Shown piece by piece: positions 12,739-49,625 of a stretch of 64,000 bases of DNA. This stretch comes from Alphaproteobacteria bacterium (GTDB taxonomy: Bacteria; Pseudomonadota; Alphaproteobacteria; Rs-D84). The first letter of the stretch is position 1. The number at the start of each line of letters is the position of its first letter. Below the pieces are notes generated by a model. That model saw only the letters and a list, made by a program, of their open reading frames with translations. It did not search any database and was not told where the DNA came from. The position numbers were made by a program, and so were the translations under genes. The stretch lies in NCBI GenBank assembly GCA_017615655.1, contig JAFZZS010000002.1, positions 195,114 to 259,113 on the forward strand, written 5' to 3'.

Positions 12739-12742
12739 AAAA

Positions 12743-12768
12743 GGTTGCAATTTTTGCAACCTTTTTTA
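12743..12768. terminator. Bidirectional terminator GGTTGCAA-TTTT-TGCAACC flanked by A5/T6
   Basis: Perfect 8-bp stem between the convergent P1 gene and infA. Confidence 0.6.
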
Positions 12769-12781
12769 TAAAAACAGATAG

Positions 12782-13027
12782 TTATTCTTGGGTGTCACCT
12801 GGTGCACGTTTGCGTTCAACAAATGTTATGCGTCCCTTGGCTAAATCATAGGGGGTCATTTCAACGCGAACACGTTCGCCTACATTGACCCAAATGCGCG
12901 CTTTACGCATCTTGCCACAAACGGTTGCCAATATTTCGTGACCATTATCTAGTTTTACACGAAACATTGTGTTGGGTAATTTATCCTCGACTGTGCCGGT
13001 AAAAACAACAACATCATCTTTTGCCAT
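12782..13027 (-). CDS. infA: Translation initiation factor IF-1
   Basis: S1-like OB fold; GHEILA...GKMRK...VGDRV-type IF-1 signature; 81 aa. Confidence 0.9.
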
Positions 13028-13150
13028 ATTTATTCCTTGGGCTGTTTATTCATGAATAATATGTTGATTAGGCAAAAAAATCAAGAATTTTTTGTTGCCT
13101 GACCCCTATTGTTCTGATAAAATTATACAGAAGATGTAGGAAGGAAAAAT

Positions 13151-15298: not shown

Positions 15299-15308
15299 GG
15301 TTTTGATA

Positions 15309-33069: not shown

Positions 33070-33678
33070 ATGAAAGTTATTTTGACAGAAAAAATTACTC
33101 GTTTAGGAAATATTGGTGACACAGTAGAGGTAAAGACTGGTTATGCGCGTAATTTCTTGTTGCCAAACAACAAGGCTTTGCGCTGGTCACGTGAAAATGT
33201 TGCATTGTTCGAAGCACAAAAAGCGGAACTTCAGGCACGTCACGAGGCAGCTAAGAAATCCGCAGAATCCAAGGTCGATGCTGTCAAGAATGCCAAGATG
33301 TATATGATTCGTCAGGCTGGGGATACGGGTCAACTTTATGGTTCTGTATCTAGTCGCGACATTGCACGTACATTGAAAGAAATTGCAAATGTTGACATTT
33401 CTTCTGCTCAGGTTTTGCTAGGCGCACCAATCAAATCGATTGGGGCATTTGATACAAAAATTGCATTACACCCTGATGTTGTTGTCCCAATCAAAGTCTA
33501 TGTTGCGCGGACCAATGATGAAATTGAAGCGTTGGTTGCAGGCAAGGTTTTGACTTTCGGAACCAAGAAAGTTGAAGAAGATGCAAAAGAAGAAGTCAAA
33601 GAAGTAGCGGAAACACCCGAAAAACCAAAAGCGGATAACGTTGAATCTGCGGAACCAGTTGCGGATGTTGCGGAATAA
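33070..33678 (+). CDS. rplI: 50S ribosomal protein L9
   Basis: MKVILTEKITRLGNIGDTVEVKTGYARNFLLP is the canonical L9 N-domain, plus an acidic C-terminal tail. Confidence 0.9.
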   Translation: MKVILTEKITRLGNIGDTVEVKTGYARNFLLPNNKALRWSRENVALFEAQKAELQARHEAAKKSAESKVDAVKNAKMYMIRQAGDTGQLYGSVSSRDIARTLKEIANVDISSAQVLLGAPIKSIGAFDTKIALHPDVVVPIKVYVARTNDEIEALVAGKVLTFGTKKVEEDAKEEVKEVAETPEKPKADNVESAEPVADVAE

Positions 33679-33780: not shown

Positions 33781-34869
33781 ATGGTTAAAGAAAAATGCCC
33801 GAAAGTTTCTGTATTGGTACCATGCTATAACTCTGAGCGTTATATTGACGAATGCATCACCAGCATTATAAATCAATCTTTAAAAGATATAGAAGTTATC
33901 TGTATAAATGACGGATCGACTGATAATACCCTGGATATAATCAAAAAATATGCCGATTTAGATAGTCGGGTTTTGGTTATTGATAAACCAAACGAAGGCT
34001 ATGGTAAGACCATGAATCGTGGTCTGAACATTGCAAGTGGCGAGTATATCGCGATTGTTGAGTGCGATGATTGGATTGAAAAAAATGCACTGGAATTACT
34101 TTATACAACCGCAAAACAAAATGATGCCGATATGGTAAAAGCGGATTTTGTTTTGTTTGATAATGATACTCGTGTTGAAACGCCATCAAGGTGTTTCGGG
34201 GTCAGCCCAAAAATGTATGGCAAGGTATTTTGCCCGATGACAGATAATTCGGATGTCGCATGGACCGGTCACCCAAGTATTTGGACATGTTTATATCGAA
34301 ATGATATGATTCAGAAATATAAAATACGTTTTGCAGAAACACCTGGTGCGTCGTTTCAGGATATGGGATTTAAACCTAAAACTTTTATAGCCGCACGTTC
34401 ATTTGTATACATACCAAATGTTATACTGCATTATCGCAAACACGCCAATAATTCCGATAAGACAAATAGCAAGATTTTTGAAGTTTGCGAAGTTCATAAT
34501 GATGCGGACAGATGGTTACAGCAAAGCGGGTTGGAATCAAAACGTGCGTGGGATATACTGAATGTCTCACGATTTTCCAATTATGTTTGGAATTTGCGTC
34601 GATTAAGTGGTGATGCCAAGGCGCAATTTACACAAAGATTTCAATCTGATTTTGACAAGATTTTATCCGCAGGAAAACTTAATAGGAATTTCTTCAACGA
34701 TAAATTATGGTTAAAAGTGTGTATAATGGTATATCCAAATAATCCTTGGTGGCGAATTTTGCGTACACTGACCACTTTAATTTGGCCGATATACCGCAAT
34801 AAAGTAGTGTTTGGACACAAAGTATATTACTTGTTCGGGGGGATTGTTTTGAGAAAGGTAAAAGTGTAA
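33781..34869 (+). CDS. Family 2 glycosyltransferase
   Basis: GT-A fold: VSVLVPCYNSERYIDECITSI...ICINDGSTDNT...VECDDW (DxD-like). Confidence 0.8.
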   Translation: MVKEKCPKVSVLVPCYNSERYIDECITSIINQSLKDIEVICINDGSTDNTLDIIKKYADLDSRVLVIDKPNEGYGKTMNRGLNIASGEYIAIVECDDWIEKNALELLYTTAKQNDADMVKADFVLFDNDTRVETPSRCFGVSPKMYGKVFCPMTDNSDVAWTGHPSIWTCLYRNDMIQKYKIRFAETPGASFQDMGFKPKTFIAARSFVYIPNVILHYRKHANNSDKTNSKIFEVCEVHNDADRWLQQSGLESKRAWDILNVSRFSNYVWNLRRLSGDAKAQFTQRFQSDFDKILSAGKLNRNFFNDKLWLKVCIMVYPNNPWWRILRTLTTLIWPIYRNKVVFGHKVYYLFGGIVLRKVKV

Positions 34870-34885
34870 AGGTTGGTATGATAAA

Positions 34886-35719
34886 ATGAACAAGAAAATC
34901 GCAGTTATTGGTGCCAGTGCTTATTTGGCCGAAAATATATCAAATATATCAAAAAATGTTTTGTTGTTTTCACGCGCAGATGATTGGGCTAAGTCTGGTA
35001 ATGCTGATGATTTTGATTGGGTTATAAATTTTTCTATTCAGCCAGAATTTCAGAAAAAAATTTTACCGGAATCTGAATTGATTGATGTTAATATCGCCAA
35101 GATAATTCAAGGCATGAAGACAAAATTCGTAATGATTTCGTCAAGAAAAGTGTATGGGACTTGTAAAACATTAAATATTTTCTATGAAACCGACGAGTGT
35201 CATCCAGCCGATTTTTATGCGAAAAACAAATTAGCAACCGAGCATAAAGTACTAGATTTATTGCCCGAACAATCACTGATTGTGCGTGTATCAAATATTA
35301 TTGATTTTCCATCTAGGCGTCCTGAACAACGTGTGTTTATGGGATGGATTAGGGATTCTATGCGCGAAAAAGGTGAATTGAATATCACTGAAAATCCAGA
35401 TGTAAAAAAAGATTTTATAACACGAGATTATTTTCAACGCGCATTGCGTGATTTAATGAACAAAGACGAATTGGGAATATTTAATGTCGGTGCCGGATTT
35501 GCGGTCAGTCTGCGTGAATTGTTACCTAGGATAGTTGGACGTGGTAACTGTGTGTTTAGTGGCAAGAACAAGGAACTAGCAGATCAATTTATATTAAATA
35601 CTGACAAATTGCATATGGTAATGAAAGCTTTTTCTGTGGACGAATTATATACAAAGTGTGATAATATTCGCAAGGTGATGTTTGATAATATGGGGGCGCA
35701 TGATAATGGCAAAAATTAA
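34886..35719 (+). CDS. NAD(P)-binding sugar-nucleotide epimerase/reductase-like protein (RmlD-like)
   Basis: N-terminal Rossmann motif (IAVIGASAYLA); SDR-like architecture; located inside the glycan locus. Confidence 0.5.
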   Translation: MNKKIAVIGASAYLAENISNISKNVLLFSRADDWAKSGNADDFDWVINFSIQPEFQKKILPESELIDVNIAKIIQGMKTKFVMISSRKVYGTCKTLNIFYETDECHPADFYAKNKLATEHKVLDLLPEQSLIVRVSNIIDFPSRRPEQRVFMGWIRDSMREKGELNITENPDVKKDFITRDYFQRALRDLMNKDELGIFNVGAGFAVSLRELLPRIVGRGNCVFSGKNKELADQFILNTDKLHMVMKAFSVDELYTKCDNIRKVMFDNMGAHDNGKN

Positions 35720-36893
35720 ACACCTTGTTGTTGGCGCCGGAATTTCTGGGGCGACATTGGCGGAAAGAATTGCGAATGTTCTGCATGAACCAGTTGTCGT
35801 TATTGATTCCAGAAATCATATCGGTGGAAATTGTTTTGACTATGTTGATAAAACCGGAATCCGTATTCACAAATATGGTCCGCATATTTTTCATACCAAT
35901 AATCAGGATGTTTGGGATTATTTATCCCAATTTACGTCATGGCATCCGTTTTTCCTGCGTGTACGTGCATATATAGATGGCAAAACTGTTCCTTTTTCGT
36001 TTAATTTGAATAGTATTGCAGAATCTTTTCCACCAACCATGGCACAGCGGTTAACAGAAAAATTGATAGAAAAGTTAGGTTATGGACATAGGATTTCTAT
36101 TTTGCAATTGCGTGAATCTAAAGATGCGGATTTGGCGTTTTTGGCAGATTTTATTTATAACAAAGGTTTTTTAAATTATTATAAAAAACAATGGGGTTGT
36201 ACCCCCGAGGAACTTGATGCATCGGTTGCGGAACGGGTTCCAATTAGTATTTCTACATCGGATGATTATTTTATTGATAGGTATCAAGGTATACCGTCAA
36301 ATGGATGGACACCGATGATTAGGAAAATGCTGGATAATCCATTAATAACAGTTCGTTTGAATACCCCATTTGATAAATCAATGGAATATGAGAACTTATA
36401 TTACACGGGTCCAATTGATGAGTTTTTTAATTTCGAATTCGGCGAATTACCATACAGAAGTTTGACATTTGATATTCGTACATATAATCAGGAATATTTT
36501 CAAAATAATGTTGTGGTTAGTTATCCTAATAATTACGATTTTACGCGTATTTGTGAACATAAGTACTTTCTGGATGATAAATCTGATAAGACAGTTGTAT
36601 CTTTTGAGTATCCATCGGCGTTTGTAAACGGAAAAAATGAACGCTATTATCCGATACCACGTCCGGAAAATGCACGGTTATACGAAAAATATTTGGTTAA
36701 GGCACAAACAGAGTGTGGGAATACGTTCTTCTTTGGTCGGTTGGGGGATTACAAGTATTATAACATTGATATGGCAGTTGCCAGGGCATTAAATTTATTT
36801 GACGAGATAAAAAAACGTGAGGGTGGGAATGTCCAACAAACCAAAAGTTTCGGTTGTTGTGCCAATTTATGGTGGCGAAAAATATTTAAGTAA
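35706..36893 (+). CDS. glf: UDP-galactopyranose mutase
   Basis: FAD-binding VVGAGISGATLA...IDSRNHIGGNCFD...KYGPHIFHTNN, colinear with Glf. Confidence 0.9.
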   Translation: MAKIKHLVVGAGISGATLAERIANVLHEPVVVIDSRNHIGGNCFDYVDKTGIRIHKYGPHIFHTNNQDVWDYLSQFTSWHPFFLRVRAYIDGKTVPFSFNLNSIAESFPPTMAQRLTEKLIEKLGYGHRISILQLRESKDADLAFLADFIYNKGFLNYYKKQWGCTPEELDASVAERVPISISTSDDYFIDRYQGIPSNGWTPMIRKMLDNPLITVRLNTPFDKSMEYENLYYTGPIDEFFNFEFGELPYRSLTFDIRTYNQEYFQNNVVVSYPNNYDFTRICEHKYFLDDKSDKTVVSFEYPSAFVNGKNERYYPIPRPENARLYEKYLVKAQTECGNTFFFGRLGDYKYYNIDMAVARALNLFDEIKKREGGNVQQTKSFGCCANLWWRKIFK

Positions 36894-37971
36894 GTGTGTT
36901 GATTCTATATTGGATCAGACCCTTGCCAATATAGAAGTAATTTTAGTTGATGATGGGTCGCCTGATAAATGTCCAGAAATTATTGATAAATATGCCGAAA
37001 GTGATAGTCGTGTTGTCGCGCTGCACAAAGAAAATGGTGGCTACGGTTCCGCAGTCAATATGGGTATTGCGCATGCCAGGGGTGAATATATTGGTATTGT
37101 AGAAGGTGATGATTGGATTGAACCGACAATGTATAAGAAATTATATACAAATGCGGTTAAAAATGATTCGGATGTCGTTAAGTGTGGATTCTATAAATAT
37201 AATTCTTTGGCCCAAAAAGCAAAAAATATAAATAGAAAATGGCATGTTTCATACATGAATTTATTTGATGCCCCAAGTGGTACTTTTACAATTGCTGATT
37301 GGCCAAAGATAATGATGTGGCACGCGAGTGTTTGGGCGGCACTGTATAAAGCAGATTTTGTTAAAAATATAAAGATGCCAGAAACCAAATCTGCGGCATA
37401 CCAAGATTTTCCGTTTACTTGTGAAGTTATGGCGCGTGCAGCACGAATATCAGTTGTAAAAGAATATCTGGTTCATTATCGTATGGAACAAGGGCAGGGA
37501 AATTCCGCAGTTTGCAGAAATAAACGTGGCATTATGATGGCAACGCAATCAATCGCAGGTATAGATATTTTGTGTAAATACAATGTGTTAGATTTATGCA
37601 AAGAAGAAATATACTATCATGCGTATATTGCATCACGCGGATTTTTTGACAGGATAATGTGGCAATATAAATCTGAATTTTTTGATGAACTTTACAGGTT
37701 ATTGGAACCATTACGTAAAGATAAAAAATTTAAATGGCAGTATTTTAATTCTGCGGACAGGTATTTCTGTAACCATGTGATAATGAATGATTTAATTGGT
37801 GCGGTGCGTGTATGGTATCCACTGACGATTGCGTCATTACGTAAAGTGTTGATATCGGTACGTATGCCGCAAAAGGATTATTTTTCTGGTTGGCGAATTC
37901 AGTTGCTGGGTATCCAAATTGGGTCGCATCTAGATTATTCTGTACCCGCACTTATTAGAATAAAAATGTAG
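36829..37971 (+). CDS. Family 2 glycosyltransferase
   Basis: VSVVVPIYGGEKYLSKCVDSI...ILVDDGSPDKC...VEGDDW. Overlaps the glf 3' end by 65 nt if ATG 36829 is the start. Confidence 0.8.
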   Translation: MSNKPKVSVVVPIYGGEKYLSKCVDSILDQTLANIEVILVDDGSPDKCPEIIDKYAESDSRVVALHKENGGYGSAVNMGIAHARGEYIGIVEGDDWIEPTMYKKLYTNAVKNDSDVVKCGFYKYNSLAQKAKNINRKWHVSYMNLFDAPSGTFTIADWPKIMMWHASVWAALYKADFVKNIKMPETKSAAYQDFPFTCEVMARAARISVVKEYLVHYRMEQGQGNSAVCRNKRGIMMATQSIAGIDILCKYNVLDLCKEEIYYHAYIASRGFFDRIMWQYKSEFFDELYRLLEPLRKDKKFKWQYFNSADRYFCNHVIMNDLIGAVRVWYPLTIASLRKVLISVRMPQKDYFSGWRIQLLGIQIGSHLDYSVPALIRIKM

Positions 37972-38043
37972 CATTATAGAAAAAAATATGATAGTTTTCC
38001 TTGTGTGCGATTATAATGTTTTTATTAACCAAGGAAAACGTTT

Positions 38044-38949
38044 ATGCCGAAAAAACAAAAACCAATAAATATATTGTTTGCTGCAACATCGGATTATTTA
38101 CCTTATGCCATTGTTACGGCACGTTCCGCGATTGAACGTGCAAATGGTCGGCCAGTAAATATACATTTTATGTATGCGGATATTGTTAAACCAATTCCCG
38201 ATCAGGTAAGGGAATGTTGCTTTGAAATGGCGCGACGCAGTTTGGATGATGTAGATGCGACAATAAATTTCTATGATATTTCTGATAAAATGTTTTTGTT
38301 AGAAGGACAGAATGTCGGCATGTGGGGCCAGGCGATTTCTATGACGCATTATTTTTATCTGTTGTCGCCACTGGTGTTACCAAAAGATGTGGACAAAGTA
38401 ATCTATCTTGATACAGATATGATAGTTAACTGTGATTTAGGTGTCGCCTATGATACCAAGATGAGTTCTCATTTGATTGCGATGGGTGCTCCGCGTGGGG
38501 TTGAAGAAATGGGTGATGATGTTTCAAATTCGGGATTTTCGGTTTTGAATTTGAAAATGTGGCGTGCTGAAAATACGTTAGATACATTATTGGCGTTTGG
38601 GCGTGCATTACCACGTGCGCGTTTTTGTGACCAATACTTGTTGCATGAATATTTCAAGAAAAATCATGTTGATAGAATGATGTTTTTGGCACCCGAATAC
38701 AATTTGTTTCCGCAGTGTGCGATGCATGTTGCATTACAAGATATTAAGATACTGCATTTTACTGGTTACGGTGCATTTAAACCATGGCAAGATGTTTGTG
38801 GACGTCAGCGTGGTGCGCATTTGTGGTGGCGCAGTGCACGCCATACAGAGTTTTATGAAAAATTCATTATGGATATGGTTGCGGTGGGGTATAAAAGCAA
38901 ATCACAACATCATTCATTTTGGTGGCATTTAGTAAGAATGAAATTCTAA
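38044..38949 (+). CDS. Family 8 glycosyltransferase (LPS alpha-1,3-galactosyl/glucosyltransferase-like)
   Basis: NILFAATSDYLPY... and the YLDTDMIV DxD motif typical of GT8. Confidence 0.75.
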   Translation: MPKKQKPINILFAATSDYLPYAIVTARSAIERANGRPVNIHFMYADIVKPIPDQVRECCFEMARRSLDDVDATINFYDISDKMFLLEGQNVGMWGQAISMTHYFYLLSPLVLPKDVDKVIYLDTDMIVNCDLGVAYDTKMSSHLIAMGAPRGVEEMGDDVSNSGFSVLNLKMWRAENTLDTLLAFGRALPRARFCDQYLLHEYFKKNHVDRMMFLAPEYNLFPQCAMHVALQDIKILHFTGYGAFKPWQDVCGRQRGAHLWWRSARHTEFYEKFIMDMVAVGYKSKSQHHSFWWHLVRMKF

Positions 38950-38966
38950 CTATGGGATAAAAAGCA

Positions 38967-39910
38967 ATGCGTTTTTTTAATTTTAAACGAAAAACAGAAA
39001 AATCAAGTGCGGTTGTATCTGACCCAATTCGTATCATTGCCGAAAATGTTTTTACGCATGATGGTTGTGATGAATTTGAATATGAATTCTTGAAACACGT
39101 TTTTCAAAACAAACGCGTTTTGGCAAGTTATGATAACAAGGTGGCGTGGCTGGTTTGTATAACGGCATTGGCGTTGCATGATGATATTGCTGCGGCAAGA
39201 AGTCTTTTCTTGATGTATTATAAACGTTTCGGAATGAATGGTGTTGAATCTTATGAACCAATTTGCCGAATTGCAAAATCACTAGGACTGGGAAATGATT
39301 TAACTAATAAAACCATCGCGGTATATGACAAGGTTAAAAAAATTCGTTCAAAAAAGCGTTTTGAAAATATTATTAAAAAGGCAAAATCTGTTGCAATAGT
39401 CGGGCGTTCACCGGCATTGATTGGTAAAAAATTGGGGCATGAAATTGTGATGCACATGATGTCGTTATTCGGTTTAATATGGCGGATGTTTCCGGCAAAT
39501 ATTCGGTTGATTTTGGCGTAAAAAACGATGTGATGGTTATAAATTGTTGGAATAAAACTGACAATAACGCATTTTATTTATACAAAGATTTTCGGTTATA
39601 TGGTGCATTTTCGGGTGTTATGGATTCTGTTTATAATGATGAGTGTAAAAATGCAGATTTCCTTGATTTTGGGCTAAAGGCGGAATGTTGTCGTGAATCT
39701 GGATTGGTTGATCCGACAAGTGGGGCACTTGCAATAATGTGGGTTAAGAAAATATTGGGTAATTTAGACAAAGTGGACATATATGGCTTTGCGTTCCAGG
39801 ATGAAAATATGAATCTTGGGCATTATGATGGTAAATATGTCATAAATGATGACATTCACAATATGCGAGCAGAAGTAGAATACTTGCGGCAGATTGCAAA
39901 CAAAGATTAA
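38967..39910 (+). pseudogene. GT29-type (animal-like) sialyltransferase homologue interrupted by a 2-bp insertion
   Basis: Frame 1 gives the sialylmotif-L start VAIVGRSPALIGKKLGHEI. Frame 2 (from 39449) continues DAHDVVIRFN, then motif S PTSGALAIMWVKKILGNLDKVDIYGFAF, motif III HYDG and motif VS HNMRAE. Removing TG at 39447-39448 (TTG[TG]ATG) restores a single ~314-aa ORF. Confidence 0.65.
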
Positions 39911-39927
39911 CTGGTTGGTAATTTTAA

Positions 39928-40467
39928 ATGAAGCGGCTAATTTCTAAATTTTCATTGTTGTCACGAATAATATATGGTCAGTCCAAACGTGAACTGCAAC
40001 GCGATATTTACACCCGGTCAATTCAAAAACAGGTTAAATCATGTGGTCTTGGGTTGCGGGTAAATGCGCCGTGTTCTATGACACATAACACAATTTTAGG
40101 TGACCATTGTAATTTTAATGGGATGCGAATAACTGGTTCTGGAATGTGCAAAATTGGAAATTATTTTCATTTTGGTGATGGGTGTCGTATATTGACCGAA
40201 AATCATAATTACGAAGGGGATGAAATACCATACGATTCCACATACATTTCCAAAGATGTAATTATTGGTGATTTTGTGTGGTTGGGTATAAATGTAATAA
40301 TTTTGCCCGGAACCGAGATAGGCGATGGTGCCATTATTCAGGCGGGGGCGGTTGTTCACGGGAAAATACCACCATATGCAATTGTTGGTGGTAATCCTGC
40401 GGTTGTGTTCAAATACCGTGATAAAGAACATTTTGAAAAACTAAGAAAATCAAAGAAATTTCATTAA
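39928..40467 (+). CDS. Hexapeptide-repeat sugar O-acetyltransferase (NeuD/WbbJ/LacA-like)
   Basis: Left-handed beta-helix hexapeptide repeats (IGDFVWLGINVIILPGTEIGDGAIIQAGAVV). Confidence 0.75.
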   Translation: MKRLISKFSLLSRIIYGQSKRELQRDIYTRSIQKQVKSCGLGLRVNAPCSMTHNTILGDHCNFNGMRITGSGMCKIGNYFHFGDGCRILTENHNYEGDEIPYDSTYISKDVIIGDFVWLGINVIILPGTEIGDGAIIQAGAVVHGKIPPYAIVGGNPAVVFKYRDKEHFEKLRKSKKFH

Positions 40468-40482
40468 ACAAAAGGATGAAAA

Positions 40483-41364
40483 ATGACAAGACCAGTAGTC
40501 GTTGCCGAAGTCGGCTGTAATCACAAAGGGGATATGGAAATTGCCCACCGTATGATTAAACTTTTGGGTTGTTTTAAAACATTAAATCCAGATGCAGCGA
40601 TTGATATTGTTAAGTTTCAAAAGCGGACTAACAAGGAACTTTTGACCCCCGAAGAATATAATGCGCCGCATCCACATCCGGAAAATAGTTATGGTAAAAC
40701 ATATGGCGAGCATCGTGAATTTTTGGAATTTAGTGCCGATCAACATAAACTGTTGAAGCAATGGTGCGAAGAAGAAGGGTTAACATATTCTACATCAACG
40801 TGGGATTTAACCGCGGCCAAAGAAATTGTGGCGTTGCATCCGTCATTAATCAAGGTTCCATCAGCAAGTAATTTAGACTTTGATATGTTGGGTTACTTAC
40901 GGGACAACTATGATGGCGAAGTGCATTTGTCTTTTGGTATGACGACCAAAGAAGAAGAAAAAAAGATTGTGAATTTCTTTAAAGAGAAAAACCGTGCCAA
41001 AGATTTGGTTCTTTACGCATGCACGTCGGGTTATCCGGTACCGTTTGAAGATATTTGCCTTAATGAAATAACACGTTTGCGTGAAACATTCGGTAATGAT
41101 GTCAAGGCAATCGGTTTTTCGGGACATCATTTGGGTATTGCGGTTGATATTGCTGCATTGGCATTGGGTGCAACATATTTTGAACGCCATTTCACACTTG
41201 ATCGCACATGGAAAGGAACCGATCATGCGGCGTCGTTGGAACCAACAGGTATGCTAAAGTTAGCACGTGATTTGCGTAATGTGTCCAAGGCATTAACATC
41301 AAAATCCGAAGATATTTTGGATATTGAAAAGGTTCAACGTAAAAAACTGAAACGGAAAATCTGA
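40483..41364 (+). CDS. neuB: Nonulosonic (sialic/legionaminic/pseudaminic) acid synthase, NeuB family, lacking the C-terminal SAF/antifreeze-like domain
   Basis: TIM-barrel NeuB signature (VVAEVGCNHKGDMEIA...IKFQKRTN...GFSGHHLGIAVDIAALALGATYFERHFTLDR). Only 293 aa. Confidence 0.8.
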   Translation: MTRPVVVAEVGCNHKGDMEIAHRMIKLLGCFKTLNPDAAIDIVKFQKRTNKELLTPEEYNAPHPHPENSYGKTYGEHREFLEFSADQHKLLKQWCEEEGLTYSTSTWDLTAAKEIVALHPSLIKVPSASNLDFDMLGYLRDNYDGEVHLSFGMTTKEEEKKIVNFFKEKNRAKDLVLYACTSGYPVPFEDICLNEITRLRETFGNDVKAIGFSGHHLGIAVDIAALALGATYFERHFTLDRTWKGTDHAASLEPTGMLKLARDLRNVSKALTSKSEDILDIEKVQRKKLKRKI

Positions 41365-42377
41365 TGTCTAATATTGCGTTTATTCCAGTACGAGGTGGGT
41401 CAAAATCAATACCACTGAAAAATATCAAATTGCTGGCGGGGCGGCCATTGGTTTATTGGACCGCGGCGGCGGCGAATAATGCAAGGTGTGTCGATCGCGT
41501 AATAATCGCAACCGACAGTGATGAAATTCGTGCCGCAGTTCGCACATTTGCCAATTTGAAAAAAGTGGAACTGTATAATCGTGATGCCGAAAATGCGACT
41601 GATACTGCATCAACTGAAAGTGTTATGTTGGAATATATCAATAAATCAAATTTGAAAAATGATGATATGTTTTTCTTGATTCAGGCGACATCACCATTGT
41701 TGAAATCAGAACATATTGATGAAATGTTCGCAAAAATGCATCGTGATGGCGCGGATTCGGCGTTGTCGTGTGTGCGGAATAAACGTTTTTTCTGGGGCGC
41801 TGATGGAAAATCAATGAACTATGATTATTGTGCACGTCCACGTCGCCAGGATTTTGAAGGTATGCTGATGGAAAATGGGGCGTGTTATATAAATTCTGTG
41901 GGAAATATTCTGTGTAATAAAAATCGGTTATCAGGAAAAATATCGGTTTATGAAATGCCAGAATATACCGCAACAGAAATTGATGAACCTGATGACTTTT
42001 TGATAATTGAAAAGTTAATGGCAAAGTATAACAAACCGCAATTACCCACCGGTAAGACATTTTGTTTTGATATAGATGGGGTGTTGGGGCTGTTTGCAGA
42101 TATCAAAGATATGGCAGGCGATTATGCAAATAATGTGCCAAATATCGAAATGATAGAAATCTGTAATAAATTATATGATGCAGGAAACAAAATTGTTCTG
42201 CATACCGCACGGGGCAGTGGCAGCGGAATTGATTGGTCTGATAAAACCAAGGCGCAGTTGGCGCGATGGGGGGTGCGTTATCATGCATTGACCTTTGGCA
42301 AGCCCGCTGCCGATTTTTATATTGATGATAAAATGTTATCATTGGAACGCTTGAGAATGATGACAAAGTCGCGATAG
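41364..42377 (+). CDS. neuA: CMP-nonulosonate (acylneuraminate) cytidylyltransferase with a C-terminal HAD-like phosphatase domain
   Basis: N-terminal IAFIPVRGGSKSIPLKNIKLLAGRPLVYW (CMP-NeuAc/KDO synthetase fold). C-terminal FCFDIDGVLG...GKP..DFYIDD HAD motifs I-IV. Confidence 0.8.
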   Translation: MSNIAFIPVRGGSKSIPLKNIKLLAGRPLVYWTAAAANNARCVDRVIIATDSDEIRAAVRTFANLKKVELYNRDAENATDTASTESVMLEYINKSNLKNDDMFFLIQATSPLLKSEHIDEMFAKMHRDGADSALSCVRNKRFFWGADGKSMNYDYCARPRRQDFEGMLMENGACYINSVGNILCNKNRLSGKISVYEMPEYTATEIDEPDDFLIIEKLMAKYNKPQLPTGKTFCFDIDGVLGLFADIKDMAGDYANNVPNIEMIEICNKLYDAGNKIVLHTARGSGSGIDWSDKTKAQLARWGVRYHALTFGKPAADFYIDDKMLSLERLRMMTKSR

Positions 42378-42384
42378 AATAATA

Positions 42385-43239
42385 TTATTCAGTGGTTGCT
42401 GCGATACCTTTTACTTCCCATAGGATTGAACTGTTGGCACTGGAATAAACCCTGACCACAAACGTGGTTGTGGTAAGGTTCCAAACTGAATCCGTTTGTT
42501 CGTTTGCGGAACCACTGCCGGGGGTTGTTGTTCCAAAGTTTCTTTGTTTTGTGATAAAGTAATTATTATCCGCCATTTCTATGGGCATTGTAACAGTTAA
42601 ATTTGTCGCGCTGGATTGCGCTGGTAAACGTCCGCCTTGTTCAACCCAACCACTTTTGTATTTGCGATACCATGTATAATTATTCTCGGCAGTTGGATTT
42701 TGCGATGCCACAACATAATCGTAACCGTTTAAAGTGTTTATCGCCGTGGTATGTCCACTAACAGTATCGTTTAATGTTGTTAAATTATCCGTGGTAACAA
42801 AACCAGTCAATTGAGTATGTATTGTTGTCAATTCAGATAATAATTCCGCCAAGGTCGGTGTCGTCGCCAACGAAATCAAATTGTTTATTTTAGTTGTTAA
42901 TTCTTTTAATATTTCAATACATTGATTGAAATCTTGGTTTAGTTGATGTGATTGTAGTTGGGCGGTTGGTTGATAGTCAATATGTCGTGTTAAATCAATA
43001 TCACGCCACACTTTGATAGTGGAATTATTTGTTGGGGCAACCGCGAAATCTATGCGCCCCCCGGTATATGGGATATCTGGTGCGTCGCCAGATGTAGTAT
43101 TTGGGTAAACCGTGAAAGCATCAGATGTTTGTGTGACGTTATTTATACTAACGTGAATATCATTTGTTCCAAAGAACGCAAATGTAAAATAAAAACTGGT
43201 GGTGTTTCCATCGCCATTAAAAGTTTGTGTATTAGCCAT
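42385..43239 (-). CDS. Orphan phage tail-fibre protein with a T7 gp17-type N-terminal tail-attachment domain
   Basis: N-terminal ~120 aa (FNGDGNTTSFYFTFAFF...IHVSINNV...IDFAVAPTNNSTIKVWRDIDLTRHIDYQ...LNQDFNQ) is colinear with the T7 tail-fibre N-domain pattern. A Thr/Asn-rich fibrous middle and a distinct C-terminal domain follow. AAGGAAAAC RBS. Confidence 0.6.
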   Translation of the reverse strand: MANTQTFNGDGNTTSFYFTFAFFGTNDIHVSINNVTQTSDAFTVYPNTTSGDAPDIPYTGGRIDFAVAPTNNSTIKVWRDIDLTRHIDYQPTAQLQSHQLNQDFNQCIEILKELTTKINNLISLATTPTLAELLSELTTIHTQLTGFVTTDNLTTLNDTVSGHTTAINTLNGYDYVVASQNPTAENNYTWYRKYKSGWVEQGGRLPAQSSATNLTVTMPIEMADNNYFITKQRNFGTTTPGSGSANEQTDSVWNLTTTTFVVRVYSSANSSILWEVKGIAATTE

Positions 43240-43279
43240 GATATGTTTTCCTTTCTTTGTTTAATATTAAATAAAAAAA

Positions 43280-43299
43280 GTCTGAACACGGGTTCAGAC
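43280..43299 (-). terminator. Terminator hairpin GTCTGAAC-ACGG-GTTCAGAC with a T7 tract on the minus strand (downstream of dsbA)
   Basis: Perfect 8-bp stem. The A7 run on the plus strand at 43273-43279 is the U-tract on the minus strand. Confidence 0.5.
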
Positions 43300-43398
43300 A
43301 AAATACAAACGGTGACGCAAATTCGTCACCATCTTGGGCAGAATTATATCAAAAAAAGCTCCAAAAGTCAATATGTTTTAATCAAATAAAAACAAAAA

Positions 43399-43417
43399 AT
43401 CCGCCATATTGGCGGAT
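43399..43417. terminator. Bidirectional terminator ATCCGCCA-TATT-GGCGGAT flanked by A6/T5, immediately after the dsbA stop
   Basis: Perfect 7-8-bp stem with flanking A/T runs. Confidence 0.55.
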
Positions 43418-43438
43418 TTTTAACTTGGTATCCAATCA

Positions 43439-44254
43439 TTATCTATCCAGGGCATCGATAATCTGATCATAAGGAATCGCGCCAGGAAACGCTTTTTCAC
43501 CGATAATCAAATATGGTGTTCCGCTGATGTCAAATTTCTGTGCCAAATCACGGACGTTTTTAAGTTCACGTGCGACGACTGGTCCCTTCATATCACGTTC
43601 TAATTGTGCGGTGTCCAAACCGACTTCGGCAGCCATAGCCATAACATTCTTGTGGACTCTATCACCCAATTTTGAACGATCTTTCATATCATCTTGGCTG
43701 TAATATTCTTTTTCCATCAACTTTCTATCCAATGCAGCCGCTTTATCATTGCCTTGCAATTTTGCAGCGATAACTGCTTTGGCAGGTGCATCAGACAAAT
43801 CGCCATGAATCGAGAAGTTCTTTAATACAACGCGAACATCATTGCGGCTTTCCATTACACGTGCCAATTCGCTGTGAACACGACGGCAATATGGGCATGA
43901 ATAGTCAGACCACAAAAAGATTGTCTTTTTGGCATCTTCGTTGCCCCAAACCGGTGCATCTGCGATCATTTCGCCCATGTTGGAACGGACATATGCGCGA
44001 ACAGCTTTATTCTTTTCGGCATTTTGTTGTTCCTGCATAGCGGTAACCATTTCTTGCAAGATTGATGGATTTGTATGCGTCAGATAGATTGGTGTGTAAA
44101 GACGGCATACACAGCCAGCAATCAACAAAATGGAAACCAATTTGATTAATTTTGTTGTAAGAGTTGTAGGCTTTTTACCATCTTGCTTGGCAATCATATC
44201 GCCAAACAAAAACAGTGCAACGCCAACAATCAGAACGACTATTGTCCAAAACAT
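43439..44254 (-). CDS. dsbA: DsbA-family thiol:disulfide oxidoreductase (membrane-anchored)
   Basis: N-terminal TM helix and a thioredoxin fold with the CPYC active site (WSDYSCPYCRRVH). AAGGAG RBS. Confidence 0.85.
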   Translation of the reverse strand: MFWTIVVLIVGVALFLFGDMIAKQDGKKPTTLTTKLIKLVSILLIAGCVCRLYTPIYLTHTNPSILQEMVTAMQEQQNAEKNKAVRAYVRSNMGEMIADAPVWGNEDAKKTIFLWSDYSCPYCRRVHSELARVMESRNDVRVVLKNFSIHGDLSDAPAKAVIAAKLQGNDKAAALDRKLMEKEYYSQDDMKDRSKLGDRVHKNVMAMAAEVGLDTAQLERDMKGPVVARELKNVRDLAQKFDISGTPYLIIGEKAFPGAIPYDQIIDALDR

Positions 44255-44322
44255 GTTTTTCTCCTTTGCTTGTTGAACGGTGTTATCTTAGCAAAAAAAA
44301 AATCGAAATTGCAACAAAAATG

Positions 44323-44985
44323 TTAAATTTTTTTGTTATTTAAAAATATGCGTGCGTTGGGGACCCGGGCACCCTGGGTTGTACAGATTTTTTCAAGAAA
44401 TTTTAATGTGATATCCAATGTTACCGGCATTTTATAAAGTTGTGCCAGATATGGCGCTGCGCAATTATCGCATACCGCACGTGCCGTTTTTGGTGATATG
44501 TAATGTAGGTCTGATGTTTTTCCGCACCCCGAACAATGTGATAAATCCATTGCGTATCCCAATTCCCCAAGCAATTCGATTTCCCACTTTAGATATTCAG
44601 AATATGCATCAGTTGTATCAGATAAATCGTTTAGTAATTTAACTGTACCGTTGTATAAGTTTATATATGGTTCGCGTTCAGGTAACATTGTGCATATTAA
44701 ATCAAATGCGGCATTCATATAAGACAGTGCCAGTGAATTCATCATAATCGGTACAGCCAGGTTTTTTTCACTTTCCCAATGAAAGACACCCAATGCAGAA
44801 TCTAGTCGCGCATTCCATGTCATCGAACCAATTTGTCCTACAAGCGGTTTGTTTGTTTTCGTTGTAATTGCGCCACGTAACATTCCGGTCATTAAACCGC
44901 AATCGCGCGTAAGTATATGTGCGATAGCATTTTTTTCGTCAAACGGTCGCAATGCAACCAAAATTCCAATGGATTCAAGTTTCAT
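44323..44985 (-). CDS. recO: DNA repair protein RecO
   Basis: N-terminal OB fold (GILVALRPFDEKNAIAHILTRDCGLMTGMLRG) and a C-terminal Cys4 zinc motif (CSGCG...CDNC). Confidence 0.85.
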   Translation of the reverse strand: MKLESIGILVALRPFDEKNAIAHILTRDCGLMTGMLRGAITTKTNKPLVGQIGSMTWNARLDSALGVFHWESEKNLAVPIMMNSLALSYMNAAFDLICTMLPEREPYINLYNGTVKLLNDLSDTTDAYSEYLKWEIELLGELGYAMDLSHCSGCGKTSDLHYISPKTARAVCDNCAAPYLAQLYKMPVTLDITLKFLEKICTTQGARVPNARIFLNNKKI

Positions 44986-47122: not shown

Positions 47123-47201
47123 TGAGCATTTCTTGAATATACCCCCAGAATATGATAACATTCATGTCGGGTTGGGTTATTATGTAAAGAAAGGAGAGAT
47201 T

Positions 47202-48452
47202 ATGAAAACCAAGTTAGGTCTGTTTGTAAGTATGATTGCGGCGGTTGCGGTAACAGGTGCATTTGGTGCGGCATCTATTCGTACAGGTGCCCCAACGAAT
47301 ACAGTGAAAACACAGGCAATAACAATGCCGACAAATACGGGGGTAGCACGTGCGGGTTCGTTGAAAGTATCGCCAAATATTGTAAATAGTGACCAGCCAG
47401 TAGCCGATTCAACAAATGCACGTTTGGCGTTATCTAAATCAATGTTAAGCAAGTTAAAAGAAACGTCTACTAAAACAGACAATAATGCTCGTGATAATTC
47501 TGGTACAGCGGTTAAACCAAATCCAACTACTATCCAATCGTCTGATATAGCCGAATTGGACAAGCGGGTTACCGAAGTCGAGAAAAAAATGGATAAAATG
47601 GAAGATGTAACCGGTGATTTACCAATCGTTATAGATGATGAATTGTCAACAACCAGTACGAATCCTGTTCAGAATCGGGTTGTAACGAATGCATTGGATG
47701 GTAAACAGAATAAATCAACAGCATCGACTAGTATAGCCGGACCGAATGGAACATGGATTCCTGTGGGAGATGGCGATTACGTGAATAAACAATTTGCTGA
47801 TGGCGGTCCAGCAGCAATGAGATTTGATATAAGACCAGATAGAGTTATACGAACCGTTAATGGTATAACATCGGATGCAACAGGTTTGGTTCAGGGTAGG
47901 GCGGTATACGAGGCATTACAGGCACTTAGCACAGATTCGAATATAAAAATCGCGGAAGTGACGTATACTGAACCACAGTTTATAAGCGGTGGAATAGTGG
48001 GGTCAATAAGGGGGTATACTACACTGATTGTTGTAGTACCAGATTGCACAGCACCGGGTACGGCTTGCAGACAACGAGTGCGGATCAATGATGAATGCAA
48101 ATTGACACGTATTTACGATGGACTTGCCCGTTATGAGTGCATTCGTGAAGATATGAGACCTGATGAGCCAGGTGCACGCTATGTCATTATTGATAGTGTG
48201 CCTTCTGATTATACAACTTATTTGTACGGAACGGATGGAACAGAAGAAAATCTTGCATCAGATGGTTTGTTGTATCAAATGAACGAGGTCCGCAATACAC
48301 TGTATGGCGAGAATGGTTCAGTGACCGAGCCTGCACTGGATAGTGTCGCGTATGATATACATGATTTGTTATTAAGGGTGCATTACGCGGAACAGACGAT
48401 ACAAGATTTGGCAACAAGGGTATCTGCATTAGAAAATCCCGCTAGTAAATAA
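47202..48452 (+). CDS. Secreted hypothetical protein (~416 aa) with central and C-terminal coiled coils
   Basis: Signal peptide (MKTKLGLFVSMIAAVAVTGAFGAAS), a Thr/Asn-rich N-terminal region, coiled coils (IAELDKRVTEVEKKMDKMEDV; IHDLLLRVHYAEQTIQDLATRVSALE) and four Cys near the C-terminus. AAAGGAGAG RBS before ATG 47202. Confidence 0.55.
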   Translation: MKTKLGLFVSMIAAVAVTGAFGAASIRTGAPTNTVKTQAITMPTNTGVARAGSLKVSPNIVNSDQPVADSTNARLALSKSMLSKLKETSTKTDNNARDNSGTAVKPNPTTIQSSDIAELDKRVTEVEKKMDKMEDVTGDLPIVIDDELSTTSTNPVQNRVVTNALDGKQNKSTASTSIAGPNGTWIPVGDGDYVNKQFADGGPAAMRFDIRPDRVIRTVNGITSDATGLVQGRAVYEALQALSTDSNIKIAEVTYTEPQFISGGIVGSIRGYTTLIVVVPDCTAPGTACRQRVRINDECKLTRIYDGLARYECIREDMRPDEPGARYVIIDSVPSDYTTYLYGTDGTEENLASDGLLYQMNEVRNTLYGENGSVTEPALDSVAYDIHDLLLRVHYAEQTIQDLATRVSALENPASK

Positions 48453-48596
48453 ATCTGGTATATAAATTTAGACACACATCTTTGTGGTGTGTGTTTTTTG
48501 TTGTCAAATTGGCGTGTAACACCATGTTTTAGTGGTAAGATATTTGCATATGTTGCGAAAAAGTGATACAATGCAAAGAACCGAGGAGATATGCCA

Positions 48597-49625
48597 ATGG
48601 ATTACATTTATAAGTATCCGGATGTTCGTGATGTTTTGATGGTATTGACTGCAAGTTTATTCAATGGTAACGATTTGTTAAATGAAAATATGGCTCTGCG
48701 TGGTTGGGCTGTTTTGACGTCACGTGATAAACAATCTAGCGAAGATTTGCAAAAATTCTTAGATTTAAATAATGTTAAATTTCAGGCTATTCCCGGGGTG
48801 TTTGGTGATGAAATAAAATTCAAATTTGGTCAAAATGTGAAAATAGATGATACTGTTCAGCAAATGTGTGACGACCGGGCTACGAAACGGGTAAATCAAA
48901 TTCTGTTAACCGCAAAAAATCACAGAATTAAAGCGGCGGAAGAAAATGTGGTAGATACTGAAATCAGTAAACAAGAAATATTAAATCAGTTAAAAGTGGG
49001 CGGGCGCGAAGTTTCCAAAAAGGATGCTGTGGCACGATTAAAAGAGTTAATGCGAGATGTTGGACGTTTGCCATATAAAGAAGAGTCAACACAGCCAGAA
49101 AATCTATTTTATTGCTTCTATTTTGATGAAGATGTATTGGACGAGGCACAAAATTTGATGAATCAAGTTGGAATTCCAACACATAAAAAACGCAATCACG
49201 ATGGTAATGCATACTTATTATATGCTGTCCCAAAGGGGCAATTGTCAGACGAAGTTGTCGACATAGTAAATGAATTTATTGATACAATCATAGAAAAGGA
49301 AAAAAATACTAGGCAGGAAGCACTTGATAAATTAAAAACAATGATAATGAGTGTTAAATACGCTGGATACGAAAATAGACCTGATAAATACTATTATTTC
49401 TATTTTCCGCTGCGCAGTATTTCCGAGGCGAAATCTTTGATGCAAATCTATACTGGGGTTGCCCCAGAAGAGCATATTAGTAATGGAACAGGAATCCAAA
49501 CAACAGTTTTGCGGTACAAAACAGAACCAAAATCCCAAGATGTACAGACATTGGTTGAAGAATTGAAAAAAACGGTTGCGCTGCGGGCAAGTGCGCATCA
49601 CAAAGGTGGTAGGTTTGAAATATAG
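48597..49625 (+). CDS. Hypothetical protein built from three ~100-aa internal repeats
   Basis: Repeat B (LKELMRDVGRLPYKEESTQPENLFYCFYFDE...EAQNLM) is colinear with repeat C (LKTMIMSVKYAGYENRPDKYYYFYFPLRSISEAKSLM). A weaker repeat A lies upstream. GAGGAG RBS. Confidence 0.5.
   Translation: MDYIYKYPDVRDVLMVLTASLFNGNDLLNENMALRGWAVLTSRDKQSSEDLQKFLDLNNVKFQAIPGVFGDEIKFKFGQNVKIDDTVQQMCDDRATKRVNQILLTAKNHRIKAAEENVVDTEISKQEILNQLKVGGREVSKKDAVARLKELMRDVGRLPYKEESTQPENLFYCFYFDEDVLDEAQNLMNQVGIPTHKKRNHDGNAYLLYAVPKGQLSDEVVDIVNEFIDTIIEKEKNTRQEALDKLKTMIMSVKYAGYENRPDKYYYFYFPLRSISEAKSLMQIYTGVAPEEHISNGTGIQTTVLRYKTEPKSQDVQTLVEELKKTVALRASAHHKGGRFEI

Follow-up and report, generated by a model that had tools for sequence, protein, structure and literature searches.

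A podovirus-type receptor-binding fibre gene tied to variable glycan loci in Rs-D84 Alphaproteobacteria, a candidate trans-encoded part of a domesticated T7-like particle

A stretch of 64,000 nucleotides from the genome of an alphaproteobacterium of the order Rs-D84 (GenBank assembly GCA_017615655.1, contig JAFZZS010000002.1, positions 195,114 to 259,113; hereafter the window, by which we mean the whole of this stretch) carries, at the end of a glycan-biosynthesis locus, a solitary gene for a protein that resembles the tail fibres of phage T7. This gene is a genuine phage-style receptor-binding fibre, in which a podovirus-type anchor, a helical shaft and a knob like those of pyocins and of gp53 are joined in one chain (Table 1). 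The explanation that we favour, and consider moderately probable, is that it encodes the receptor-binding fibre, supplied in trans, of a domesticated T7-like head–tail particle, probably a gene-transfer agent (GTA), and that it is kept at the variable glycan locus. A broader proposal, namely that the Rs-D84/Enterousia lineage keeps a previously undescribed T7-like GTA with head–tail genes around dnaB, fibres at glycan loci, a self-recognition rule and leader-gated fibre expression, is put forward here only tentatively.

Because single-sequence searches with the window protein were weak or empty, its identification draws on family-level and structural evidence. In single-sequence Pfam, the 284-amino-acid protein scores below the cutoff of PF03906 (Phage_T7_tail; E=0.087, 12.9 bits with a cutoff of 25.2) and has no match to PF21882 (Gp53-like_C); a PDB sequence search returned nothing meaningful, NCBIfam and the defence-system profiles of PADLOC gave no match, and neither did tblastn against 50,697 phage genomes. 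At the level of the family, the PHROG tail-fibre family phrog_32829 matches residues 5–173 (E=2.5e-8), PF03906 matches 20 of the 34 aligned relatives (E<0.01, best E=2.7e-9) and is a precomputed annotation on two relatives, and PF21882 matches seven of the 34 (best E=1.7e-5). The T7 gp17 N-domain pattern that the initial annotation of this DNA had read from the sequence is thus upheld by PHROG, by the relatives and by the fold described below, but not by the protein's own PF03906 score.

An AlphaFold model built on an alignment of 34 homologues (mean predicted local distance difference test score 80, mostly above 85 in the N-domain) has a beta-rich N-domain at residues 4–79, helices at 97–126, 130–147 and 150–164, and a beta C-domain at 176–280. 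When the N-domain was compared with the PDB by Foldseek, it matched fibre N-domains of podovirus tails, namely those of LME-1 (9efk_AE, E=2.7e-5), Carin-1 (8ck1_B, 4.8e-5), PhiM1 (8vbx_S, 2.6e-4), P-SCSP1u, Kp7, HRP29 and T7 gp17 (7boz_b, 9.3e-3), each of the E values quoted being accompanied by a probability of 1.00. For the C-domain, the matches were to the fibre feet of the R1 and R2 pyocins and to the AP22 gp53 tip (6ct8, E=4.2e-5; 6cl6_A, 1.2e-4; 6cl5_A, 2.3e-4; 6cxb, 3.6e-4; 4mtm, 1.2e-3). The three-part layout proposed initially, with an N-domain, a Thr/Asn-rich middle and a distinct C-domain, is therefore borne out by the model and the Foldseek matches, the middle region corresponding to the predicted helical shaft, which, by analogy with phage fibres, probably forms a trimer. 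With T7 gp17 and the fibres of LME-1, Carin-1, PhiM1, P-SCSP1u and Kp7 the protein shares an N-terminal beta domain of about 100 residues with the pattern GDG.T..F.F.FP.F ... R..DYQP ... LN.D.N, and, C-terminal to it, a shaft of helices that leads to the distal binding domain. It differs from gp17, which is 553 residues long, in its length of 284 residues, its chromosomal position far from tail genes, its sub-threshold Pfam score and the lack of a sequence relative among the phage genomes searched. The knob has the fold of the R-type pyocin foot (PA0620; 6ct8, 6cl6) and of the gp53 tip of Acinetobacter phage AP22 (4mtm; PF21882), a kind of knob that binds sugars of lipopolysaccharide (LPS); it sits here, however, on a podovirus-type anchor and not on a myovirus fibre, and no assembly chaperone gene follows it.

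The family to which the protein belongs is large. A database search returned 897 homologues (about 900 protein clusters), nearly all of them 261–333 residues long, and those with names all come from metagenome-assembled genomes (MAGs) of an uncultured "Alphaproteobacteria bacterium"; a scan of one genome per GTDB species gave 63 loci, all in gut or rumen alphaproteobacterial MAGs, many of which are Candidatus Enterousia, and several MAGs have two or three fibre genes. Ca. Enterousia belongs to the order Rs-D84, has genomes of about 0.75–1.0 Mb with neither respiration nor most biosynthesis, and is presumed to depend on other cells; the coding density of its MAGs is 89–91% (2025, PMC12306168). 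The retention of a fibre gene in genomes as small as these argues for a function.

Across the family, the position of the fibre gene beside a polysaccharide locus, which had been remarked upon as striking in the window, turns out to be a rule and not a coincidence. The linkage was counted in 36 GTDB loci carrying the pyocin-type knob: the gene next to the fibre lies on the opposite strand, convergent with it, in all 36, as do 104 of 105 genes when the next three are taken, and the 25 commonest Pfam families among these next three genes are without exception families of glycan biosynthesis, including GT2, GT1/4, GT11, GT-D, acetyltransferases, epimerases/dehydratases, pyruvyl transferases, glycerophosphotransferases, RgpF and flippases. 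The first four contexts examined were each tail-to-tail with a glycan operon, and each time the gene content of the operon was different. The three genes on the other flank are varied housekeeping genes (S1 with adenylate kinase, DsbA with RecO, CorA, and GrpE with TpiA among them), and since this flank varies, the fibre is tied to the glycan locus rather than to a chromosomal address. Family members with a different C-domain, of the type MPDY...TAP.DG...F.P.KG, obey the same rule. At four such loci (L052 10950-11255, L053 1161-1466, L059 10827-11132 and L070 10866-11168), an open reading frame (ORF) of about 100 codons stands on the same strand between the alternative-C-domain fibre and the convergent glycan operon, and it may encode a chaperone for tail-fibre assembly. 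The linkage rule is broken by a 759-residue member from a Ca. Enterousia species in the window's own clade (L016 10001-12280), with an N-domain 69% identical to that of the window protein and a long repeat-rich C-terminal region, whose gene adjoins rplI with no glycan locus between.

The knob itself evolves as an exchangeable module. Median pairwise identity is 58% in the N-domain and 28% in the tip, which begins after the GWVEQGG motif (14% against shuffled sequences), and identities in the two regions are uncorrelated (rho 0.01). Tips fall into discrete types that are common to distant lineages, as in loci L034 and L048, whose N-domains are 44% and tips 71% identical, and in some family members the whole knob has been replaced. 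Tip type is also associated with the neighbouring glycan genes: among pairs with tip identity of at least 50%, four of five share at least 40% of these genes, as compared with 5 of 523 other pairs (mean sharing 0.39 versus 0.034; label permutation p about 5e-5; Fisher p=2e-7), and the effect persists within bins of N-domain identity.

A candidate for the particle that such a fibre would serve is found in relatives. Most IMG/VR matches to the fibre N-domain came from "viral contigs" about 10.5 kb long; one that was examined in full (L081) begins exactly at the ATG of the capsid gene and ends at the stop codon of p62, so that these contigs look like chromosomal regions trimmed at gene boundaries. 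The order of genes is a capsid (PF19821), p76, a gp11-like protein (phrog_394), a gp12-like protein (phrog_376), p116, an optional 183-residue fibre made up of N-domain and coil only, and the ATPase half of the large terminase (TerL); then, on the opposite strand, p218, a tandem helix-turn-helix (HTH) regulator and a full DnaB; and finally the nuclease half of TerL, a T7-type portal (PF12236), p62 (Phage_Bbp19) and a 78-residue membrane protein, p78. The two TerL halves, which align to positions 268–460 and 468–703 of one PHROG profile, occur as separate conserved ORFs in L081 (4243-4890 and 8196-9047) and likewise in L064, L026, L112 and about 60 other loci, and the 3.3 kb opposite-strand segment between them, with p218, the regulator and full-length DnaB, is invariant in its arrangement in all loci seen. 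The same order recurs in related MAGs (L064, L026, L068), in about 115 metagenome contigs (about 35 from IMG/VR and 80 centred on the portal) and in a 483 kb scaffold.

By its pattern of descent, this cluster behaves like a host trait inherited vertically, unlike a mobile phage. About 35 plus 25 contigs show the 13 genes in collinear order, and some of the contigs that carry the cluster are 935, 851 and 696 kb long in a lineage with genomes under 1 Mb; between L026 and L068 the cluster proteins are 76–93% identical and the adjacent PpiD, TpiA and GrpE 74–78%; the upstream flank is syntenic in five contigs; and the portal nearest to it among cultured phages, that of a T7-like pelagiphage, is 33% identical. 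No integrase or att site turned up among the annotated ORFs of the relatives, and neither an excisionase nor a DNA polymerase was found in the cluster. Features of this kind are the hallmarks that separate GTAs from prophages, and a phage-like structural cluster that is inherited vertically and has no integration or replication modules, as expected of a GTA, is found here in the relatives only.

Several observations connect the orphan fibre with the cluster. Its N-domain is 40% identical to that of the cluster-resident fibre (E=5e-21), with 14 invariant columns common to both, and in T7-like phages the gp17 N-domain docks at the junction between the gp11 adaptor and the gp12 nozzle. In an unbiased, portal-centred sample of 25 complete clusters, the 183-residue fibre is present in 12; the other 13 lack any T7-type fibre gene in the surrounding 10 kb and would need a fibre supplied by another locus. 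In the fibre-less clusters of L026 and L068, a fused 280-residue fibre, the type to which the window protein belongs, lies 3 kb downstream and is convergent with a glycan operon. Clusters with the 183-residue fibre have instead a short receptor-binding protein (an Mtd_N domain plus a knob) right after p78, convergent with glycan genes (L064, L087, L088, L103, L126, L129, L131). Accessory structural genes at separate loci are a further trait of GTAs that is seen here, the fibre and the cluster having been demonstrated in the same genome for L026 and L068 only.

Expression of the fibre seems to be gated by its leader. The 199-bp spacer between dsbA and the fibre contains three terminator-like hairpins in a terminator scan; the claim that two terminators isolate the fibre from dsbA accordingly stands as regards the presence of terminators, whereas their number and role need amending, since the first of the three ends dsbA and the other two lie inside the fibre's own leader, downstream of a near-consensus promoter. 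The -35 element and the extended -10 element (TGATATAAT) are conserved across the family loci, and in 32 of 34 family leaders two hairpins, each followed by a U-run, were read by eye from per-sequence folding, their stem sequences differing while the pairing is kept. The leaders were folded one by one because a MAFFT alignment takes no account of structure, and RNAalifold run on it retrieved hairpin 1 incompletely; in Rfam, no family passed the threshold for the leader. Between the last leader hairpin and the ribosome-binding site (RBS) of virtually every fibre-family gene lies a 12-bp palindrome, which in other clades than the window's reads TTGTTATAACAA; 43 of the 44 copies of that sequence found in 1.55 Mb of related loci stand immediately 5' of the RBS of a fibre-family gene, and our estimate of occurrences by chance is about 0.4. 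This form is often extended to the 16-bp TTTTGTTATAACAAAA (for example at L008 9977, L020 3340 and L072 3610). The palindrome is a candidate operator for some regulator. The capsid operon of the cluster likewise has a leader hairpin with a T-run just 5' of its RBS, and no sequence motif shared between the fibre leaders and the capsid-operon leaders was found. Late genes under antitermination control, such as those governed by lambda Q at pR'-tR' and by GafYZ of Caulobacter, are built in this way, with terminators blocking a strong promoter. The likeness to lambda Q and to the GafYZ of the Caulobacter GTA lies in the strong promoter and one or more terminators upstream of structural genes; the difference is that no Q- or GafYZ-like protein was identified here and that the palindrome occurs almost only at fibre genes.

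Taken as a mechanism, these observations suggest the following. The gp17-type N-domain would, by analogy, dock the fibre at the gp11/gp12-like junction of a particle encoded by the vertically inherited 10.5 kb cluster around dnaB in Rs-D84/Enterousia, a cluster that the genome of the window would also be expected to carry. The particle would package and transfer DNA, and the retention of capsid, portal and terminase makes a GTA its probable identity. The pyocin/gp53-like knob would bind the cell's own surface glycan, and the gene would stay at the end of the hypervariable glycan locus and not in the cluster, with the consequence that the tropism of the particle, set by the knob tip, and the glycotype of the cell would be inherited and exchanged together. 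Two tandem terminators between the strong promoter and the gene would keep the gene silent until antitermination, or a factor that acts on the neighbouring palindrome, lifts the block.

A number of points weigh against this explanation. We infer the particle, its packaging and the transfer of DNA from genes alone, and antitermination of the fibre only from the architecture of its leader. A tblastn search of the 64 kb window detected neither the T7-like cluster nor its gp11/gp12-type proteins, and the cluster is absent from the window's ppiD-tpiA-grpE site (at 5.6–8.4 kb, flanked by PGK, RNase HII, SLT and NrdR), which is its position in L026, L068 and L113; GC content gave no placement of the cluster-bearing contigs in the window's clade, and a search with the portal gave at least 120 matches, of which those listed all come from the sublineage of the query. 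The splitting of the large terminase into two ORFs might mean that it is inactive, and a small terminase, T7-type internal core proteins and clear lysis genes were not identified in the cluster, the lysis candidates being limited to a sub-threshold Hydrolase_2 match upstream of it and to the 78-residue membrane protein. As to self-recognition, the association between tips and glycan genes is based on five high-identity pairs and could be produced by hitch-hiking through physical linkage alone, five pairs with shared glycan genes have unlike tips, and at L131 the neuA and neuB products are 72% and 82% identical to those of the window while the tip belongs to a different family. In the L131 locus (12333-15591 on a 935 kb metagenome contig), the gene directly after the T7-like cluster encodes an Mtd_N-type receptor-binding protein and faces neuA and neuB convergently. 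The two identities just given far exceed the approximately 50–65% that housekeeping proteins of the window show with those of other lineages, which suggests horizontal exchange of the nonulosonic-acid module.

Other explanations accommodate part of this evidence. The fibre might serve a killing particle of the PBSX, tailocin or efagin kind that is aimed at the glycans of competitors, with linkage to the producer's own glycan locus keeping producers immune. The knob, with the fold of LPS-binding R-pyocin fibres, would suit such a weapon, as would tight transcriptional gating of a lethal product, and headed PBSX-like elements do act as bacteriocins, a caveat that is discussed for the GTA of Faecalibacterium prausnitzii, FpGTA (PMC12946183). 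We nevertheless regard this as unlikely, for the capsid, the portal and both terminase halves, which a pure killing device could do without, are under purifying selection, and the pairing of similar tips with similar own-glycan genes is what self-recognition predicts and is not required by targeting of non-self. That the 10.5 kb cluster is instead a still-active minimal temperate or satellite-like phage, and the orphan fibres host-range cassettes (morons) scattered by recombination, seems to us still less plausible. IMG/VR does classify the cluster as viral, it encodes an HTH regulator and a DnaB-type helicase, and its downstream flanks vary between genomes; the IMG/VR contigs, though, are trimmed chromosomal regions and not free genomes, as checked in L081, the divergence of the cluster tracks that of flanking housekeeping genes with a syntenic upstream flank, and neither the integration and replication genes and att sites named above nor, by tblastn, a match to the fibre in phage genomes was found.

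The initial annotation had offered as an alternative a prophage remnant reused as an adhesin; taken separately, the remnant fits poorly and the adhesin is not supported. Co-option of the fibre as a stand-alone cell-surface lectin or adhesin, independent of any particle and used for instance for attachment to partner cells, would be in keeping with the predicted dependence of Rs-D84 bacteria on other cells (PMC12306168) and with the lack of particle genes near the fibre in the window. It is improbable nonetheless, to about the same degree as an active minimal phage: inspection by eye revealed no signal-peptide-like segment at the N-terminus, no secretion partner was seen, a constitutive surface protein would hardly be expected to have tandem terminators in its leader, and the invariance of the N-domain residues common to cluster-resident fibres is hard to explain without a gp11/gp12-type partner. 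A decaying prophage remnant without current function is scarcely credible. The fibre does stand alone in the window, next to a locus in which a sialyltransferase-like gene is frameshifted, but it is intact and of conserved length in about 900 protein clusters, its N-domain, promoter, leader and RBS are conserved, and it is kept in genomes under 1 Mb with the high coding density reported for Enterousia MAGs (PMC12306168). What would mark an ordinary prophage, an adjacent capsid, terminase, integrase or lysis gene, was not found in the 64 kb window.

Among known GTAs, RcGTA of Rhodobacter capsulatus has an HK97-type capsid and a long siphovirus-like tail, and it differs in this from the T7-like Rs-D84 cluster, which has a PF12236 portal, a PF19821 capsid and gp11/gp12-like short-tail proteins. 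In RcGTA, the genes for the tail fibre and the head spikes lie apart from the main cluster, and their products attach to the capsular polysaccharide of the recipient (PMC10218006); the likeness is that receptor-binding proteins are unlinked from a vertically inherited, phage-derived structural cluster. The earlier suggestion of a GTA holds insofar as relatives carry a conserved T7-like head–tail cluster with gp11/gp12-like proteins, but it has to be detached from RcGTA, since no HK97-type capsid, long tail or other RcGTA-like gene was seen in the 64 kb window. We know of no report of RcGTA fibre genes at the end of a polysaccharide locus, nor of any described RcGTA counterpart of the tandem-terminator leader. 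In phages SP6 and K1-5, a short protein of the gp17 N-domain type acts as an adaptor that carries separate receptor-binding proteins. The 183-residue cluster fibre and the Mtd_N-type protein of L064, L087, L131 and others resemble this arrangement and may share its adaptor logic, whereas the window protein is a fused, single-chain fibre.

FpGTA has a 10.5 kb head and packaging operon of the short-tailed-phage type, with a fibre, receptor-binding-protein and lysis operon 125 kb away (Nat Commun 2026, PMC12946183), and it has been called the first podovirus-like GTA, in a gut bacterium (PMC12946183). The podovirus-like head operon, the separate receptor-binding locus and the gut host are common to both systems. 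The host of FpGTA is a member of the Firmicutes, its particles and packaging have been shown experimentally whereas the Rs-D84 system is known through its gene content, and the Rs-D84 receptor-binding protein is a single gene tied to glycan loci. In the literature that we searched, the coverage of which is incomplete, no description of the Rs-D84 system was found.

Should the proposal hold, the very short list of podovirus-type GTAs would gain its second entry with the system of Rs-D84, which would also be the first T7-like GTA among Alphaproteobacteria. That genomes smaller than 1 Mb keep phage-derived genes exceeding 10 kb, together with at least one fibre gene, would point to strong selection, perhaps in favour of recombination as a counterweight to genome decay. 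One recombination unit would set both the glycan that a cell displays and the target of its particle, and would so build self-recognition into gene exchange; the fixed linkage of fibre and glycan genes would be a testable mechanism by which a gene-exchange particle is matched to the rapidly changing surface glycan of a population, with a bearing on kin-restricted gene transfer and on the coupling of capsule and O-antigen diversity to phage-like particles. In practical terms, the conserved N-domain, leader and palindrome are markers for finding fibres and glycan loci in gut and rumen metagenomes, and the swappable knobs are predicted to form a natural library of glycan-binding modules.

Table 1. 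Fibre gene, leader elements and flanking loci in the window
Feature	Position	Strand	Details and basis
Fibre ORF	42385..43239	minus	Intact, ATG start, 284 aa, RBS AAAGGAAAA upstream; ORF list and sequence
N-terminal anchor domain, T7 gp17 N-domain type (aa 1-95)	42955..43239	minus	PHROG, PF03906 in relatives, Foldseek
Helical shaft, probably trimeric coiled coil (aa 97-164)	42748..42951	minus	Predicted helices
C-terminal knob, conserved YDYV..PTAENNYTWYRKYKSGWVEQGG entry, then hypervariable tip (aa 170-284)	42388..42732	minus	Foldseek
12-bp palindrome TTTAATATTAAA, candidate operator	43260..43271		Between hairpin 2 and RBS; only exact copy in window
Leader hairpin 2 GTCTGAACCCGTGTTCAGAC + T-run (terminator-like)	43280..43299	minus	Terminator scan
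Leader hairpin 1 + T-rich run (terminator-like)	43307..43334	minus	Terminator scan
Near-consensus sigma-70 promoter TTGACT-17-TATAAT, TG extension	43343..43371	minus	11/12 matches, upstream of both leader hairpins; promoter scan
dsbA terminator	43395..43421	minus	Directly 3' of dsbA stop codon; terminator scan
dsbA + recO, housekeeping flank 5' of fibre in the window's clade	43439..44985	minus	Pfam; same flank in L005, L006, L009
Convergent glycan-biosynthesis operon	33781..42377	plus	Pfam; GT2, epimerase, UDP-galactopyranose mutase, GT2, GT8, split sialyltransferase-like, hexapeptide acetyltransferase, NeuB, NeuA-like
rplI (ribosomal protein L9); together with rpsF + rpsR it forms the conserved limit on the far side of the variable glycan locus	33070..33678	plus	Pfam context in L001, L005, L006

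The immediate surroundings of the fibre in the window are as they had been described, with NeuA-like and NeuB proteins on one side and DsbA and RecO on the other by Pfam; groEL/ES also lie on the dsbA/recO side, and other clades have a different flank in place of dsbA/recO. The lack of other phage genes, claimed for the vicinity, extends to the entire 64 kb: no capsid, terminase, portal or integrase gene was detected by Pfam on all called genes, which are otherwise housekeeping or unannotated, by PHROGs on ten unannotated ORFs or by tblastn with the proteins of the T7-like cluster, so the fibre is an orphan within the window. The stop codons of the fibre and neuA are 7 nt apart (42378-42384), the gap is free of hairpins, and transcripts from each gene are expected to run antisense into the other. 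As a general mechanism we rejected such interference by convergent transcription, since most relatives have a clean bidirectional terminator within a gap of 25–45 nt between fibre and glycan operon.

Within the glycan operon, the sialyltransferase-like gene (38967-39910, plus strand; weak GT29 match) is divided between two overlapping ORFs, 184 and 143 codons long, which align to residues 121–199 and 287–355 of one 362-residue L131 protein. The frame changes near 39445-39450, where there is no homopolymer tract, and gene calls on three further assemblies of the species divide the gene likewise, so that this is probably a real frameshift.

Other genes of the window can be noted more briefly. 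A 439-residue protein with a signal-peptide-like N-terminus (47133-48452, plus strand) looked fibre-like by eye and was considered as a second fibre; it was rejected, having no significant PHROG, Pfam or PDB match. The gene that follows (48591-49625, plus strand) encodes a protein of 344 residues, or 342 according to the gene caller, again with no significant Pfam, PHROG or PDB match and only a sub-threshold one to MutL_C, and the pair is present in other assemblies of the species. Downstream of clpX, three consecutive ORFs (10375-17810, plus strand) encode proteins of 787, 715 and 835 residues with no Pfam family and almost no PHROG signal, which are possibly envelope proteins peculiar to this lineage. 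About 2 kb ahead of the first base of the window (L108 1-1650) lies the gene for a 1658-residue protein with a YadA-anchor domain, a trimeric autotransporter adhesin, which bears on the presumed cell-associated lifestyle of these bacteria.

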